The notes under the pieces are model-generated. The model worked only from the letters and a program-made list of their open reading frames with translations. It was not told where the DNA came from and made no database searches. Shown in pieces: positions 1 through 23,432 of a stretch of DNA of 23,432 nt (positions are counted from its first letter, which is position 1; every line of letters starts with the position of its first letter). Position numbers and translations under genes: made by a program. The stretch lies in UHGV virus genome UHGV-0174115; one strand, written 5' to 3'. The DNA is from a virus.

Positions 1-55
1 GCCTACACCAGCGGCAGCACCTGTAGCAGCGCCTACACCAGCGGCAGCACCTGTA
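1..55 (+). repeat. In-frame tandem repeat (25-nt core gcctacaccagcggcagcacctgta twice, 30-nt period) encoding PTPAAAPVAA x2
   Basis: Direct repeat visible at 1-25 and 31-55; runs to the window edge so copy number may be higher upstream. Confidence 0.7.
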
Positions 56-196
56 AAAGTAATGACTGAAAAAGCAGGTGGTGCAACTTACGAACAGTTT
101 ATTGCGCAAGGTTGGAACGATGAACAACTGATCGCTAACGGTTATATGGTAATGACCACCCCGGCCCCGAATTTTCTCAACGGTAACGGTTACTGA
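2..196 (+). CDS. Hypothetical protein, 3' end only (5' end outside window); Pro/Ala-rich repeat linker then ~45-aa C-terminal domain
   Basis: Open frame from window edge to TGA at 194-196, translating ...PTPAAAPVAAPTPAAAPVKVMTEKAGGATYEQFIAQGWNDEQLIANGYMVMTTPAPNFLNGNGY*. Confidence 0.5.
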   Translation, partial: PTPAAAPVAAPTPAAAPVKVMTEKAGGATYEQFIAQGWNDEQLIANGYMVMTTPAPNFLNGNGY

Positions 197-238
197 TAGT
201 TACTGGAACTGGGACGATATACCGCTTTAAACAGACAT

Positions 239-259
239 GGGGCCATAGTGCCCCATTTA
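239..259 (+). promoter_or_regulatory. Conserved 21-nt element ggggccatagtgccccattta, copy 1 (hairpin GGGGC-catagt-GCCCC)
   Basis: Identical 21-mer recurs at 538-558; both copies lie ~17-36 nt upstream of a plus-strand start codon. Function (promoter, operator, processing site or weak terminator) not determinable by eye. Confidence 0.4.
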
Positions 260-274
260 TCAACGAGGTATAAG

Positions 275-529
275 ATGAATCAAGAACAATTTGTACAAGA
301 ACAAGAAATGTTTGAAAAATTATCTTTAAAAGACCAATTGTCATACGTAAAGAAACACGGAGTGATTCAAAAAAGATTTAATAGCGTTTTAAGAACTTCC
401 CGTGAAAATTTTGGTAAATTTTATTTCGCGTATGAAGTGCAAAACGGTTACGGATGGCGATTTGCACGCGCTTCTACAAAAGAAGAAAGTGATCGGTTAT
501 ATAATGAATGGGTTAATAAGCGTTCATAA
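275..529 (+). CDS. Hypothetical small protein (84 aa)
   Basis: ATG at 275 with GAGG 7 nt upstream; the track's 248 start is a GTG lying inside the hairpin element. No recognisable motif. Confidence 0.5.
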   Translation: MNQEQFVQEQEMFEKLSLKDQLSYVKKHGVIQKRFNSVLRTSRENFGKFYFAYEVQNGYGWRFARASTKEESDRLYNEWVNKRS

Positions 530-537
530 CTGAAAAC

Positions 538-558
538 GGGGCCATAGTGCCCCATTTA
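538..558 (+). promoter_or_regulatory. Conserved 21-nt element ggggccatagtgccccattta, copy 2
   Basis: Exact repeat of 239-259, placed 18 nt upstream of the polymerase-like gene start at 576. Confidence 0.4.
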
Positions 559-575
559 CTTATCAGGGTTTTATT

Positions 576-2432
576 ATGTCAGATGCTTACGTTCACGATA
601 TTGAAAACTATCCTAATGTTTTTCTGTTCGGTGCTATTCATGCGTTAACTGAAACACCTTATATTTTTGAGATTTCACATCGTCGCGATGATCGTCAGGC
701 TTTTTACCTGTTCACGGAATATTTGCGTGAACATCGTGCTGAAGAAGTTGGTTATAACAATCTGGGTTACGACTATCCTGTTCAGCATTCTATTTTGAAC
801 AACATCATGTATATCACCAACGCAGACATTTATAAAAAAGGTGATTCGATAATTAACGCTGGTGATGAAAATCGTTTTGCTCATATGGTGTGGGAAAAAG
901 ACTGGATAGTTCCCCAACTTGATTTGTATAAAATTCATCATTTCGACAATCAGGCAAAACGAACAAGTCTGAAAACACTTGAATTCAATATGAGAATGGA
1001 AAACATTGAAGACCTCCCATTTACGCCAGGGACTTACTTAACCAATTCTCAAATTGATACGCTTCGTCAATATCTGATACACGATTTAAAAGCGACTTTG
1101 ATATTTTATAAACACAGTAAAAAACTGATCGATTTTCGTCGTGAACTTTCTGCTAAATACGGTCGTAATTTCATGAACCATAACGACACGAAAATTGGTA
1201 AAGATTATTTCATTATGGAACTTGAAAAATCAGGTATTCAATGTTTCGAACCGGGTAGCAGAAAACCACGACAGACGCACAGACCATCAATCGCATTAAA
1301 CAGCGTGATTTTCCCTTATGTCCGTTTTGAACAGCCTGAATTTAATCGTGTTCTTAACTGGTTACGTCAACAGGTCATCACTGAAACAAAAGGCGTGTTT
1401 ACTGATTTAAGCGCTGACATTAACGGGTTCTCGTTTGATTTTGGTACGGGTGGTATCCACGGGTCTATTGAATCTCAAACTATCAGGTCCACTGAAAATT
1501 ATGTGATCATCGATCTGGACGTTGCCAGTTTTTACCCGAACCTTGCGATCAGTAATGAACTTTATCCGGCACATCTGGGTAAACAATTTTGCACCATTTA
1601 TAAAAATGTTTATGACATGCGTTCCAGTTACCCGAAAGGTACACCAGAAAATGCAATGTTAAAACTGGCGTTAAACGGTGTGTATGGTGACAGTAATAAC
1701 GTATACAGTCCATTCTACGATCCTGCTTATACAATGGCTATTACGATTAATGGACAGTTACTTTTGTGCATGTTGGCTGAAGAACTTCTGAAAATCTCTG
1801 GTTTGTCCATGATCCAGGCTAACACAGATGGTCTTACGGTTTACGTGCCACGAGTGTTTACCGGACAAGTAGAACAGGTTCGTCACGCGTGGGAAAAATT
1901 AACCAGACTCCAGCTTGAAGAAGCGATTTATGACGTGATGTTTATCCGCGATGTAAATAACTACATCGCTGTTTATGAAGGTGGTAAGAAAGTTAAACGT
2001 AAAGGTGCTTATTGTCACAGTGTTGATCTGGGTTGGCATCAAAACCACAGTATGCAAGTTGTCGCAAAAGCGGCTGAAGCAGCACTGGTACACAATAAAG
2101 ACATTCGTGATTTTATAACATCACACGAAGACATTCACGATTTTATGTTGGTGACGAAAGTACCGCGTAACAGCAAATTACTATGGGGTGATAAACAAGT
2201 TCAGAATATCACTCGTTATTATGTCAGTACAGATGGTGCGCCGTTGACAAAAGTTATGCCACCGCTGGCAAAATCACTGAAACTGAATCCTGACGCGCCT
2301 GAACGCCGTATGTCAGTGTGCAAAGGTTGGTTGACCACTGAGTGCAACGACATGAAACGTTTTAACCGGACAACGCTCAATTATGATTTTTACATCAAAG
2401 AAGCTGAAAAACTCGTTGCACCACTTCGGTAA
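576..2432 (+). CDS. Family-B DNA polymerase-like protein (618 aa), compact, with 3'-5' exonuclease-like motifs
   Basis: PolB-like motifs read in order: DIE near N-terminus (Exo I-like), HFDN (Exo II-like), YLIHD (Exo III YxxxD), DLDVASFYPN (motif A, DxxSLYP), KLALNGVYG (motif B, Kx3NSxYG), NTDG (motif C position, normally DTDS), KRKGAY (KxY-like). Start ATG 576 with AGGG 7 nt upstream. Motif-level only. Confidence 0.6.
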   Translation: MSDAYVHDIENYPNVFLFGAIHALTETPYIFEISHRRDDRQAFYLFTEYLREHRAEEVGYNNLGYDYPVQHSILNNIMYITNADIYKKGDSIINAGDENRFAHMVWEKDWIVPQLDLYKIHHFDNQAKRTSLKTLEFNMRMENIEDLPFTPGTYLTNSQIDTLRQYLIHDLKATLIFYKHSKKLIDFRRELSAKYGRNFMNHNDTKIGKDYFIMELEKSGIQCFEPGSRKPRQTHRPSIALNSVIFPYVRFEQPEFNRVLNWLRQQVITETKGVFTDLSADINGFSFDFGTGGIHGSIESQTIRSTENYVIIDLDVASFYPNLAISNELYPAHLGKQFCTIYKNVYDMRSSYPKGTPENAMLKLALNGVYGDSNNVYSPFYDPAYTMAITINGQLLLCMLAEELLKISGLSMIQANTDGLTVYVPRVFTGQVEQVRHAWEKLTRLQLEEAIYDVMFIRDVNNYIAVYEGGKKVKRKGAYCHSVDLGWHQNHSMQVVAKAAEAALVHNKDIRDFITSHEDIHDFMLVTKVPRNSKLLWGDKQVQNITRYYVSTDGAPLTKVMPPLAKSLKLNPDAPERRMSVCKGWLTTECNDMKRFNRTTLNYDFYIKEAEKLVAPLR

Positions 2433-2471
2433 ACCGTATAGAATTATTTAAAACTTATTGAGGCGATAACA

Positions 2472-3008
2472 ATGCATACTTCACACAAATTCGTAGCTGG
2501 TTCACCGATTGGTGTCTTTACTCCCGGTAAAATTTATAACCGTGTTGACGGGTTCACCCGTGACGGTCGTTCCCGTGGTTTTTATATTGATGACCGTGGT
2601 GAATTTCGTTTAACAGACGACGACATGTTCGAACCTGCAGAACAGGTCCAACTGCGTTTACCACAGATGCCAATGTTCCCGGCCCGTCAGGAACGTCTTA
2701 AACTGGCTGCACGCTGGGGAACGTCTGAAATCAGTATCAGTAACTGGTACAAAGTTGATGACCTGATGAAACCGTGGCGCATCAGTGACGCTATTTGTGG
2801 CACTCGTGTTCTTACAGAACCTAATACAACGACATTTAAACCTGGTGAACTGGCTGAACTGGCTAACTCCCGTGGTTATCTGCTGTCTGAATTATCCGTT
2901 CGTTGGGGATGGCATTACGGATGTGAAACTTTACACACTATCAGCACGGATCCGCGCCGTGTTGCGCTTATCTGGGATATGTTAGAAGGAATGAATCGTC
3001 ATGACTGA
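2472..3008 (+). CDS. Hypothetical protein (178 aa)
   Basis: ATG 2472 with GAGG 9 nt upstream; long ORF with no shadow competitor of similar length; no recognisable motif. Confidence 0.55.
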   Translation: MHTSHKFVAGSPIGVFTPGKIYNRVDGFTRDGRSRGFYIDDRGEFRLTDDDMFEPAEQVQLRLPQMPMFPARQERLKLAARWGTSEISISNWYKVDDLMKPWRISDAICGTRVLTEPNTTTFKPGELAELANSRGYLLSELSVRWGWHYGCETLHTISTDPRRVALIWDMLEGMNRHD

Positions 3009-3213
3009 TTACAGTGTTTTAAGTGATATTTCAATCAACGCAATGGTTAGTCGTAAATTGTACGGTGAACCATCACATGAACATCGTCTGGAACTGGTGA
3101 ATCAAGTAGTCGATTATTGTAATAAACCAGACAATGCAATGCCGATTATTATTGAAAATAAAATTAGCATTGCGTTCGACACTAATGAAAACGAATGGTT
3201 GGGATATGATTAA
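3001..3213 (+). CDS. Hypothetical small protein (70 aa)
   Basis: ATG 3001 overlaps the upstream stop (ATGACTGA); AAGGA 9 nt upstream. Confidence 0.45.
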   Translation: MTDYSVLSDISINAMVSRKLYGEPSHEHRLELVNQVVDYCNKPDNAMPIIIENKISIAFDTNENEWLGYD

Positions 3214-3293
3214 CGAACCTACAATTTATTGTTCTCACGCTAATCCACTCCGTGCCGCAATGATTGTGTTCTTACAGATGCAGGAAAACAACC

Positions 3294-12295: not shown

Positions 12296-15210
12296 TATAT
12301 TTTCCTGTTCGCATCATAGTTAGACCTGAACGCTTTATTTGTCTGACTGTACGGGTCATTCCATTGTGCCGCTGATTGTCGTGGGAATTCTTCACCTATG
12401 ATAAGCACTACATCATCCCGTGTTAATCCTTGTTTCACCTGAACACGTTCACCACCGTAGTTATGAACCTGAATATTAGGTGATGAACCACCTTCAGATC
12501 CGGGGGTGTATGTCCCGCGATTCATTGCTTCCAGAGTGCTACGATAACGACTGGTAGCCTGTTTGGTACTGACAAACTCACCATTACTCAAACGTGCGTT
12601 TATACTGTCACTCTGACCTGTACCCGGACCTTTAACATAACCACCCGTTGCAAAACCTGTTGCAGCCACAGACTGAATGTTACCTAACACGCTTGTTCCG
12701 TATGATAAAGCCTGTGCAATGAATGGAATATTCGCCGGGAACGGCAACGCCATAGCCTGACTAACGGCTGTCCACAGGTTAATACTCGCCTGTGCGATAC
12801 TAAAGGCTTTAGACAGTGCAAACATCGCTTTATACGCGTTTGATTGCTCACCTTTAGATTGTGCCAGACCAGCAGCCATTTGACCCAAAAAATCAGCACT
12901 GGATTGTAGCAACAAGCTGTAGTTAGCATTTGCAAGATTCGTACGGGCTTGTTCCCCAGCCTGTTGAATCTGCGTTTTCATATCCTGGTATTGTTGCTCG
13001 TTGATTAAATCTTGTTCACGGGCAGTTTGGATAATACTAAGACGTGTTGCTTCCTGTTGATTAACCTGATCAATTTGTGATTGATACGGGTTCAACTGTG
13101 CTTTCACATCAATGTCAACTTGTTTTACATCTGCGCTTAACTGTGCTATCTGCTGTTGACGTTGCAATGCAGCCACATGTGCATCAACAGCAGCACGTTC
13201 AGCATCTGTCGCGTCTTTATTCAGTCGTGACTGTGCTTCTGCCTGTTGTGACGCCAGCGTTAACTGTTGACGTACCTGATATTCTTTCTGATATGTTGCT
13301 GTAAGTTGTTCAACAGACGACCCCTGTGTTAAAGCAATCTGAACCTGTTCGCGTGCTAACTGAACATCATAATTACCAGCATTGATTTTATCCTGAAGCG
13401 TTTTCAGGTATTTCTGGTTAGCAGCCTGATTACGTTCCAGTTCTTTCTGTGCACGTTTAGCCGCAGATGCTTCAGCACTGGCTAATTTCTTCTGGTTTTT
13501 TTGATTTTCTTTATATTCTGCCTGTTGTTTCAACAACGCGGCGTAGTCTGCAATCTGTTCCTTTGTTGCTTTGTTACCCAGTTTCTGACTTGCTGCCAGT
13601 TCATAATTACCGTCAGCAAGCGCCTGGGTATAGGTAATCTGTTCTTTCAGGTTTTTAATCTGTTTTGCAGATTCGGCATCAGGACGTCCGGCAGCCTGAG
13701 CAGCCGTAATACTCGCCTGTAAAGTGCTTGCCTGATTTGCAAGATTTTCAGCAACACCTTTACCCAACGGAGTAGCCTGAACAACCCCTCGTTGTGCTTC
13801 TGCTTGTTGTTTTGTTAACTGAACATCAAGTTTTTTAAGTTCGTTTAATTTCTTCTGTGCAGCACTGGTGTCACCAACAAATTTTGTATACCCACCAATT
13901 GACTGTATTGTATACCCACGCTGAATTTGTGCTTCCAGATCTGCAATTTCTTTCAGATTGGCTTCGCGTTTTGCGGTAACACTGTTCAGATTGTTAGTGG
14001 CTTGTGCCAGTTTGTCAGCACCTGCAGCGGCTTTTATTAACTCTGTTGTACCCGATACACCACCTGCTAACAGGTCCAGGAATTTAGCCAGGAATTTAGA
14101 TGCGCCAATCTGCTGATCGAGTTCAGCGATAGCCACGGACAGGTTGTTACGTAACGCAGTGGCAGACTGATCTACAGAACGAGGAAGTTTATCGAACTGT
14201 GCGTTGATTTCATCAGTCGCGTTGTTTAACAACAACAGTTTATCACGGGTAATTTCACCATCAGAACCCAACTGTTTAAGTTCACCCGTGGTAACACCCA
14301 TCTGTTTAGCCAGCACCTGAAGAACAGTTGGTAACTGTTCCGACACAGATTTGAATTCATCACCCTGCAAAAGACCAGATGCAAATGCCTGTGATAATTG
14401 ATAAATAGCCGCTGATGCTTCAGCACTGGATGCGCCAGATACACGGGCCATTTTTTGCAGGTTGTCGGTAAACTGTAAAATAACCTGATTACTAATCCCG
14501 GCATCTTTACCAGCAGCGGCAAAACGCTGAAAACTGTTTGCCACAGCGTCAATATCTGTACCAGCACGGTTAGCCTGTTGTACTAATTGCGCAAAAATCT
14601 GTTGTGATTCAACCGACGTTGATGTGTACAGATTAATGCGACTCTGTAGCAGTTCAACTTTCGTTGCAGTATCTACAAACGCTTTACCCCAGTCGTAAAG
14701 TGATCCTGCAATCTGTAAACCAACAAACGCTTTTGCACCAGTGACAAGTGTTTCAAGAGCGCCTTTAGTTTTTTGTGTTGATTGATTAGTGTTATTCTGC
14801 TGATTATCAAGTTTTTTAAGACTGTTAGTCAGATCGTCAATTGCTTTCTTTTCATCAGCAGTTGCTTGTTTGATAATTTTGGCTAATTCAGCAAATTTCT
14901 GTTGATTATTAACAGTCTGACCAGCCGCACGAGCAGCAGCACCCTGTGTTGCTAACAGGCGTGATTGTTCCTGTGCTGCTTCACGAGTAGCCCTAGCTAC
15001 AGCAACAGCTTTAGTAGCCTGATTAGCTTGTTGTTGTGCTAGTTGCTGTGCTGCTTTTGCAACCTGCTGTTCAGCCACAGATAACTGATTAGCAGCCTGT
15101 GCTGCTGCTATGGTTGATTTTTCAGTCTGATCTAACTGACTGTTAAGATTATTAAGATTGCGGTCAGCCGAACCGGTGTCAATCTTAATATCAATAGGAT
15201 ATTGTGCCAT
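12295..15210 (-). CDS. Tail tape measure protein (971 aa)
   Basis: Long Ala/Gln/Leu/Lys-rich helical protein in the canonical position after the frameshifted tail chaperone pair and before the tip proteins. Confidence 0.85.
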   Translation of the reverse strand: MAQYPIDIKIDTGSADRNLNNLNSQLDQTEKSTIAAAQAANQLSVAEQQVAKAAQQLAQQQANQATKAVAVARATREAAQEQSRLLATQGAAARAAGQTVNNQQKFAELAKIIKQATADEKKAIDDLTNSLKKLDNQQNNTNQSTQKTKGALETLVTGAKAFVGLQIAGSLYDWGKAFVDTATKVELLQSRINLYTSTSVESQQIFAQLVQQANRAGTDIDAVANSFQRFAAAGKDAGISNQVILQFTDNLQKMARVSGASSAEASAAIYQLSQAFASGLLQGDEFKSVSEQLPTVLQVLAKQMGVTTGELKQLGSDGEITRDKLLLLNNATDEINAQFDKLPRSVDQSATALRNNLSVAIAELDQQIGASKFLAKFLDLLAGGVSGTTELIKAAAGADKLAQATNNLNSVTAKREANLKEIADLEAQIQRGYTIQSIGGYTKFVGDTSAAQKKLNELKKLDVQLTKQQAEAQRGVVQATPLGKGVAENLANQASTLQASITAAQAAGRPDAESAKQIKNLKEQITYTQALADGNYELAASQKLGNKATKEQIADYAALLKQQAEYKENQKNQKKLASAEASAAKRAQKELERNQAANQKYLKTLQDKINAGNYDVQLAREQVQIALTQGSSVEQLTATYQKEYQVRQQLTLASQQAEAQSRLNKDATDAERAAVDAHVAALQRQQQIAQLSADVKQVDIDVKAQLNPYQSQIDQVNQQEATRLSIIQTAREQDLINEQQYQDMKTQIQQAGEQARTNLANANYSLLLQSSADFLGQMAAGLAQSKGEQSNAYKAMFALSKAFSIAQASINLWTAVSQAMALPFPANIPFIAQALSYGTSVLGNIQSVAATGFATGGYVKGPGTGQSDSINARLSNGEFVSTKQATSRYRSTLEAMNRGTYTPGSEGGSSPNIQVHNYGGERVQVKQGLTRDDVVLIIGEEFPRQSAAQWNDPYSQTNKAFRSNYDANRKI

Positions 15211-15268
15211 GTTGGTTAACCTTTTCGTGAAGCATGTACACAGTTTAACACGTTAACCATAATATATG

Positions 15269-15291
15269 AAAAAGCCCGGAACTAACCGGGC
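15269..15291 (-). terminator. Intrinsic terminator-like hairpin (GCCCGG-N6-CCGGGC then U5 on minus-strand RNA)
   Basis: Plus strand reads aaaaaGCCCGGaactaaCCGGGC; on the minus strand the stem is followed by TTTTT. The stop codon of the chaperone T frame (15282-15284) sits in the loop. Confidence 0.5.
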
Positions 15292-16000: not shown

Positions 16001-16061
16001 GGTTTTTACCTTTTATGTAATAGACGATTAGATAATAATAGTTCTGTACAAATTACGCAAC

Positions 16062-16085
16062 AAAAAAGCCCGGCGTTAACCGGGC
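16062..16085 (-). terminator. Intrinsic terminator after the major tail protein gene (GCCCGG-cgttaa-CCGGGC then U6)
   Basis: Plus strand reads aaaaaaGCCCGGcgttaaCCGGGC; on the minus strand the hairpin is followed by TTTTTT, 21 nt downstream of the major tail stop. Confidence 0.6.
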
Positions 16086-23239: not shown

Positions 23240-23432
23240 GGGGATTGTCCTCGTATTGTTTCAACATGACTAAATTCTAACATTTCAGATGAATAATTGC
23301 ACTGGTGATACACGCTGTTTACAACGTTACCGAATATCTCAGAAAGATTCTTGATCGGTTCAACAGCAGTCGTTACTGGTTCAACAGCAGTCGTTACTGG
23401 TTCAACAGCAGTCGTTACTGGTTCAACAGCAG
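23236..23432 (-). CDS. Hypothetical head-region protein, 3' end only (5' end outside window), with C-terminal AVEPVTT heptapeptide repeats
   Basis: Minus-strand frame open from window edge to TGA at 23236-23238: ...AVEPVTTAVEPVTTAVEPVTTAVEPIKNLSEIFGNVVNSVYHQCNYSSEMLEFSHVETIRGQSP*. Position suggests portal or a minor head protein but this is not verifiable here. Confidence 0.5.
   Translation of the reverse strand, partial: AVEPVTTAVEPVTTAVEPVTTAVEPIKNLSEIFGNVVNSVYHQCNYSSEMLEFSHVETIRGQSP
23357..23432 (-). repeat. 21-nt perfect tandem repeat (ggttcaacagcagtcgttact, 3.6 copies, cut by window edge)
   Basis: Direct read; in frame on the minus strand, encoding AVEPVTT repeats. Confidence 0.8.

Follow-up and report, generated by a model that had tools for sequence, protein, structure and literature searches.

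Two identical 21-nt hairpin elements flank a small gene between the single-stranded DNA-binding protein (SSB) and DNA polymerase genes of a tailed phage. They are probably a junction duplication, formed when a foreign 278-bp segment carrying a single gene was inserted at a conserved, single-copy hairpin that itself looks like a leaky terminator or attenuator. The DNA analysed (hereafter the window) is a stretch of 23,432 nt from one virus genome. Judged from its sequence, the window derives from a Sashavirus-like (9NA-like) siphovirus; it is 96-97% identical to the Sashavirus phages Sasha, Sergei, Solent, Bas82, PDP46, AVIO78A and PJ16, and 79-87% identical to SP-062/069, to a group of Klebsiella phages and to 9NA. 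The features of the locus are collected in Table 1.

Table 1. Features of the SSB-polymerase region of the window
Feature	Position	Strand	Remarks
Gp2.5-like ssDNA-binding and annealing protein (SSB) gene, 3' end	1-196	+	Homologous to Sasha gp63 and Bas82_0067
Intergenic leader 3' of the SSB stop codons	197-238	+	Conserved among relatives
Resident hairpin, 7-bp stem AUGGGGC/GCCCCAU, loop CAUAGU	237-256	+	Probable leaky intrinsic terminator/attenuator after the SSB gene
Direct repeat, copy 1	239-259	+	Left context resident
Foreign insert, 278 bp	260-537	+	Shine-Dalgarno GAGG (265-268), 84-aa ORF, 8-nt trailer
84-aa protein gene	275-529	+	Own GAGG at 265-268
Direct repeat, copy 2	538-558	+	5-bp core stem only (538-553); right context resident
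Polymerase gene leader	559-575	+	Shine-Dalgarno AGGG (565-568); resident, identical to the Sasha sequence that follows the one hairpin there
DNA polymerase gene, 618 aa	576-2432	+	Family B according to the literature and one depositor

The Sasha and Bas82 homologues of the upstream gene are annotated as 'ssDNA binding and annealing protein, Gp2.5-like'. The polymerase has been assigned to PolB (PMC11348598), and the depositor of the SP-062 record made the same family B assignment through a COG0417 note on its polymerase. Both genes belong to one operon, which runs from a hypothetical gene (gp65) through an exonuclease gene to the SSB gene, the polymerase gene and further genes. The head of this operon is a divergent promoter region ~3 kb upstream, so that the hairpin lies inside the operon and not at its head. 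At both of its ends the window has a tandem repeat, a 30-nt one inside the SSB gene (1-55) and a 21-nt one at 23336-23432. The SSB repeat is where many metagenomic contigs of this phage stop, and the repeats at the window ends therefore look like assembly break points.

Insertion of a foreign gene with duplication of a resident hairpin

The 21-mer GGGGCCATAGTGCCCCATTTA occurs twice on the + strand, exactly where the original prediction had placed it. The other elements of that description were also borne out: each copy contains the stem GGGGC/GCCCC and the 6-nt loop CATAGT, each lies shortly upstream of an ATG (the repeats end 15 nt and 17 nt before the start codons), and the two bracket the 84-aa ORF. 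The repeat is exactly 21 nt long, as the bases differ at 238/537 and again at 260/559. No further copy was found in the 23.4-kb window when up to 3 or up to 5 mismatches were allowed, and the pattern GGGGC-N3-9-GCCCC matched these two copies only; the number of copies expected by chance, from 100 dinucleotide-preserving shuffles of the window, was 0. We also considered longer, degraded homology around the repeats, of the kind that a donor with a homologous intergenic region might have supplied. This was rejected, because local alignments of the flanks scored at the level of chance (compared with shuffled sequence).

Comparison with relatives revealed the empty site. All 24 GenBank relatives (24/24) have the SSB gene, one hairpin and the polymerase gene, without the 84-aa gene; they align to the window in two pieces that skip 260-537, and their SSB-polymerase intergenic region is 80 bp. 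When the window was aligned to Sasha and Bas82 by megablast, the two pieces left 278 nt of the query unaligned and overlapped by 21 nt in the subject. Another 11 single-copy loci without the 84-aa gene came from scans of JGI metagenomes and IMG/VR. The two-copy arrangement was seen among the loci from these two scans in contigs L021 and L003, both of which carry the 84-aa gene, and the second copy of L003 has an altered stem base. Copy 1 has its native flank on the left, and copy 2 has its native flank on the right. Together with the skipped 260-537, these native outer flanks indicate that the window carries a 299-bp insertion, consisting of 278 new bp and a 21-bp duplication of resident sequence. 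Insertion was thus accompanied by duplication, and every relative seen without the gene has a single copy; indeed, the comparison that had been proposed as a check showed that relatives lacking the 84-aa gene keep exactly one hairpin copy in the same context.

The composition of the insert is foreign. Its GC content is 32.7%, against a window mean of 43.8% (sd 3.6), and is below that of every 278-nt segment sampled across the 23.4 kb. This supports the earlier suggestion that the repeats are the recombination boundaries of an inserted moron. A transposon with a target-site duplication was rejected: there are no terminal inverted repeats at the ends of the insert, its only ORF has no family match, and 21 bp would be atypically long for such a duplication. 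We found no donor, that is, no 84-aa gene beside such a hairpin, in GenBank phages, IMG/VR or JGI metagenomes. Scanning IMG/VR and the JGI metagenomes with the exact and the degenerate 21-mer returned SSB-hairpin-polymerase loci and two further contigs only, both short, metagenomic and unrelated (L025, 818-841; L020, 1016-1036, reverse strand). The match in L025 extends to 24 nt and follows a tiny membrane ORF, where a terminator might be expected. GenBank phages gave no match to either contig, and the two copies are probably coincidental, since by a rough estimate about one chance match is expected in such a collection.

The 84-aa gene was at the same single site in all of the 22 carrier contigs that we read (about 40 carry the protein), and its product forms one 90%-identity cluster in a collection of 5.8 billion proteins. 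An exhaustive HMMER search yielded three small homologous proteins at 33-37% identity, to which hypothetical proteins of Seuratvirus can be added; the homologues as a whole span 28-37% identity. These homologues come from other phage types and align with the 84-aa protein over its full length with conserved motifs, which argues that the ORF is a real gene. Three homologues are encoded at L017 2441-2710, L018 1441-1716 and L032 1897-2157. The Seuratvirus homologues, and also P0011, one of the three small proteins (its gene follows a Vut_1/YhhQ-like gene), lie in or next to gene clusters for 7-deazaguanine modification. In Seuratvirus (Queuovirinae) the homologous genes belong to the 7-deazaguanine DNA-modification cluster, with a YhhQ-like preQ0 transporter region on one side and queD on the other, a setting that may hint at what the 84-aa protein does. 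The protein itself had no match in Pfam or PADLOC and an insignificant one in PHROG; AlphaFold gave a pLDDT of 58 for the protein alone and of 65 with an alignment of 8 sequences, and Foldseek against BFVD returned no match with E < 1.

The resident hairpin and the fate of its two copies

The resident hairpin, which includes most of copy 1, has a 7-bp stem with 5 G-C pairs and a 6-nt loop, followed by the tail AUUUACUUAU; its predicted folding energy is -11.4 kcal/mol (z = -2.3). Copy 2 forms the 5-bp core stem only, because its left flank is foreign; it lacks both the two outer stem pairs and the conserved leader. An Rfam scan of positions 1-3000 at E up to 10 gave no match at the locus, so that a known RNA family was rejected for the hairpin.

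The idea that the element is a repeated early promoter or operator was not supported. With as many as 5 mismatches allowed, the complete Sasha genome and 50 kb of Bas82 each contain a single match to the 21-mer, the element lies inside an operon, and no sigma-70-like site was found on the + strand between 197 and 275. A genome-wide family of repeats, promoters or operators was likewise rejected, as the scans of the window, Sasha and 50 kb of Bas82 (up to 5 mismatches) gave this locus only. The element is not a repeated regulatory signal.

The alternative offered originally was an RNA processing site or weak terminator. For the resident hairpin this is plausible: its stem is terminator-like, and two depositor groups (TransTermHP, WebGeSTer) annotated it as a terminator, in Sasha and AVIO78A. 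The weak U-tract speaks against it: AUUUACUUAU has three consecutive U and 6/10 overall, whereas other terminators in the window have 6-8 U. A simple terminator scan with lax settings (5 T in 8) accepts copy 2. Given the weak U-tract, termination may be inefficient or absent. Distant relatives (46-58% protein identity in the polymerase) have at this place, where an intergenic region exists, a strong GC hairpin that is unrelated in sequence and carries a canonical U-tract; it lies after a gene on the same strand and 7-25 nt upstream of the polymerase start codon, an ATG (contigs L075, L079, L090, L094, L099, L117 and L118; in L075 the preceding gene is an SSB homologue). The position and structure of the hairpin are thus conserved while its sequence turns over, which is the signature of a terminator or attenuator rather than of a specific operator. 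These sequence comparisons make leaky intrinsic termination or attenuation the most likely role of the resident hairpin. A leaky terminator would make sense after the SSB gene, since SSB is presumably needed in amounts far above those of the polymerase.

The hairpin is nevertheless conserved beyond what a generic terminator would need. Between Sasha and each of 9NA, Carvaje, phi_KPN_H2 and VLCpiS10a, the 63 nt from the SSB stop through the hairpin and the following ATTTA are identical at 60-62 positions (95-98%), as against 54-88% for the flanking coding DNA in the same comparisons. Intergenic regions of the replication module are, however, generally better conserved than coding DNA (Sasha versus 9NA), which tempers this conservation as a unique signal. 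The stem is invariant across genera and the loop nearly so, which hints at sequence-specific recognition. Among single-copy genomes, nucleotide 6 of the loop is T or C in many and nucleotide 4 is changed from A to G in BDX09P1. In L055 the closing C-G pair of the stem is replaced by a U.G wobble, which is tolerated in RNA and not in DNA.

Conserved sequence also surrounds the hairpin and the polymerase gene. The core of the leader after the SSB stop (197-238), ACTGGGA-YRA-YATACC-RCT, is kept at 1425-1460 of L075, where the polymerase is 58% identical and the hairpin is replaced by a canonical terminator; retention of the motif without the resident hairpin suggests that the motif is older than the hairpin. 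On the other side, the 39 nt after the polymerase gene (2433-2471) are 95% identical between Sasha and 9NA, with flanks at 75%, so that the polymerase gene is bordered by conserved non-coding sequence on both sides.

The two copies of the repeat vary asymmetrically among the 22 carrier contigs, which represent 11 haplotypes. Copy 1 has no variable site. In copy 2, 541 G>A creates an A.C mismatch in the stem in 4 of the 22 contigs and 548 T>C changes the loop in 2 of them; positions 537 and 559, which adjoin copy 2, vary as well. Although the asymmetry amounts to 2 versus 0 variable sites in 21 nt, in a clade that is less than 4% divergent, it is suggestive of function staying with the upstream context beside the SSB gene. 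The polymerase-proximal copy 2 looks redundant.

Two other differences between relatives were noted. Two related canonical terminator hairpins at 15269-15291 and 16063-16085 (AAAAAGCCCGG....CCGGGC, 87% identical to each other) bracket the tail-assembly-chaperone genes, and beside each of them relatives have additional DNA; at 16059/16060 Sasha has 701 nt and Bas82 341 nt of extra DNA, and 13666-15262 is replaced in Bas82. These two sites suggest a tendency of indels to be located at intergenic hairpins in this phage group. A second small replacement was found in the same operon as the insert, at 3028-3242, which has no alignment to Sasha or Bas82. The NinX-like gene there (3001-3264) encodes 70 aa in the window, L006 and L008, versus 113 aa in the carriers L004, L005 and L007.

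Origin of the insertion and alternative readings

The events may be pictured as follows. A foreign 278-bp segment with a single gene (a moron or ORFan) probably inserted onto the pre-existing hairpin between the SSB and polymerase genes. In the mRNA, this hairpin would act as a leaky terminator or attenuator, and perhaps as a stabiliser of the 3' end, separating the abundantly needed SSB from the polymerase and the later genes. Copy 1, with its native upstream context and 7-bp stem, would have retained the original job, and copy 2 would be a redundant 5-bp remnant before the polymerase gene, free to decay. The two 21-mers match at 21 of 21 positions including loop and tail, which rules out an imported terminator of coincidental similarity and means that resident sequence was used twice. 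The duplication could have arisen when foreign DNA was joined to two misaligned sister molecules, by fill-in of a staggered break around the hairpin, by template switching at a replication pause just past the hairpin, or by integration of a circle that carried one hairpin. Annealing proteins and exonucleases of the T7/Red type enable short homologies to recombine. This phage encodes an annealing protein and an exonuclease immediately upstream of the locus, which would be consistent with annealing-based recombination.

The gene is missing from every outgroup (SP-062/069, at least six Klebsiella phages, 9NA and metagenomic relatives), and nucleotide diversity among carriers is 1.2% in the ORF compared with 2.4% in the polymerase gene and 3.3% in the 3' end of the SSB gene. 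The absence from outgroups and the halved diversity favour a single gain within the Sashavirus lineage. Within that lineage, carriers and non-carriers are interleaved and share mosaic flanking haplotypes, and in polymerase haplotypes a non-carrier is no further from a carrier than carriers are from each other. Because flanks and polymerase haplotypes are mosaic, phylogeny does not tell a gain from a loss inside Sashavirus. Over positions 576-1515, the first 940 nt of the polymerase gene, 25 Sashavirus sequences have 62 parsimony-informative sites, and the strong mosaicism of their haplotypes points to very frequent homologous recombination among these phages. The indel is thus polymorphic for presence or absence in a pool that recombines freely. 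Its polymorphism could persist through homologous transfer that uses the flanks, through recurrent exact deletion between the 21-bp repeats, or through the two together; direct repeats of this length would make precise deletion easy, which fits such a polymorphism. We infer the direction of the event (a gain, then spread or loss) as well as the route of the duplication.

Four other readings bear on these observations. Were the hairpin-gene-hairpin arrangement ancestral, relatives without the gene would have lost it by recombination between the 21-bp repeats; a precise deletion would produce exactly their single-copy state, and the interleaving of carriers and non-carriers with shared flanking haplotypes means that some Sashavirus non-carriers may be secondary losses. 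As an account of the whole locus, loss is nonetheless improbable, as it would require many independent losses in the outgroups, and as the GC content of the insert is aberrant, its diversity is half that of the flanks and its protein is confined to a single 90%-identity cluster. A mobile cassette, made of the gene and one hairpin and integrating at the hairpin as a small circle in the manner of a PeSL mini-circle or an integron, is still harder to credit. The filled and empty sites do have the topology of circle integration, as with ORFan192 of RB49 compared with phi1 (PMC2839356), and the annealing protein and exonuclease genes are close by. However, the gene occupies one site in every carrier contig read, the hairpin is at one place in the genomes examined and so offers no second target, and no integrase was found among the window ORFs, the annotated features of the whole of Sasha or those of 50 kb of Bas82. 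In addition, the homology is 21 nt, compared with ~100 bp for PeSLs, and the model does not explain the origin of the first flanked copy. An assembly artefact, in which a collapsed repeat or a chimera mimics a duplication, can practically be dismissed: the window does begin and end in tandem repeats, as short-read contigs typically do, but the same structure recurs in 22 contigs from different samples and assemblers (ENA, JGI, NCBI, Logan), in 11 haplotypes, with the ORF intact in all.

The hairpin might, on the other hand, be a sequence-specific operator, an RNA or DNA site whose duplication put the new gene under the same control. Its stem and loop are almost invariant across genera, both copies lie 15-17 nt before a start codon with similar Shine-Dalgarno spacing, and the gene downstream encodes a family B polymerase, as does T4 gene 43 with its translational operator. 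We regard an operator as unlikely, since it is the copy adjoining the polymerase gene that decays (541 G>A, 4/22) while copy 1 is invariant, and since copy 2 lacks two stem pairs and the whole leader and yet the lineage is widespread. Moreover, distant relatives have unrelated canonical terminators at the same position, and there is no other copy in the genomes examined and no Rfam match. A related and likewise improbable possibility is that the hairpin together with its conserved leader is a specifically recognised site, either an RNA operator or a preferred substrate for Gp2.5-type annealing or the exonuclease, so that the duplication is functional. If so, the captured gene would be co-regulated with the replication genes, or single-gene cassettes would be captured and excised precisely and reversibly. 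A junction duplication at a resident, probably leaky terminator or attenuator remains our preferred reading.

Comparison with known systems

In T4 and RB69, DNA polymerase regulates its own synthesis through the translational operator of gene 43. The hairpin described here resembles that operator in being short and located just 5' of the Shine-Dalgarno sequence of a family B polymerase gene, but it shares no sequence similarity with it, its polymerase-proximal copy is not conserved in carriers, and it is a putative site. It also resembles intrinsic (Rho-independent) terminators in its GC-rich stem of 5-7 bp, its 6-nt loop and its location between a highly expressed gene and the genes that follow; its tail is U-rich, although the U-tract of AUUUACUUAU is interrupted, and the conservation of its sequence exceeds what the structure needs. 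It is unlike an integron cassette, which has an attC site in the form of a 57-141-bp imperfect palindrome and an integrase; here the palindrome is 16-20 nt, and no integrase was seen in the ORFs and annotated features searched.

Classical morons, as described in lambdoid and other tailed phages by Hendrix and colleagues, bring their own promoter and terminator. As with a moron, the extra gene stands between genes that are adjacent in relatives, has a deviant base composition and is followed by a terminator-like hairpin. Unlike the classical moron, it has no detectable promoter of its own, and the 'terminator' downstream is a duplicate of resident sequence. The locus is a well-sampled case of a tailed phage gaining or losing a single orphan gene at an intergenic hairpin, with the empty site kept in dozens of relatives and the filled site polymorphic in natural populations. 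Because of its 21-bp repeats, the 84-aa gene is expected to be genetically unstable, and the site is a tolerated insertion point that could serve in the engineering of Sashavirus phages.

The closest parallel is offered by the promoter-early stem-loop (PeSL) cassettes of T4-like phages (Arbiol et al. 2010, PMC2839356; Comeau et al. 2014, PMC4122927). In RB49, ORFan192 is flanked by two promoter and stem-loop motifs, and phi1 has one motif and no gene (PMC2839356). The stem-loops of PeSLs work as terminators, and ORFans are deleted or inserted when two of them recombine (PMC2839356; see also PMC4122927). Both systems thus have an ORFan between two copies of a stem-loop and a relative that lacks the ORFan and keeps one motif; in both the stem-loop is terminator-like, and in PeSLs the motif is where the crossovers behind gain and loss take place. 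PeSLs also border the DNA polymerase gene of RB49 and phi1, comparable to the hairpin beside the polymerase gene here. The differences are that PeSLs number ~50 copies per genome, are ~100 bp long and contain a strong sigma-70 early promoter, whereas our element is single-copy in the genomes examined, shares 21 nt and has no promoter consensus, and that PeSLs belong to T4-like myoviruses and this element to a 9NA-like siphovirus. The insertion is therefore a further instance, from another phage group, of a type of event already known, rather than a new mechanism, and it indicates that the pattern of a stem-loop duplicated around an ORFan is not limited to T4-like phages or to multi-copy promoter cassettes.
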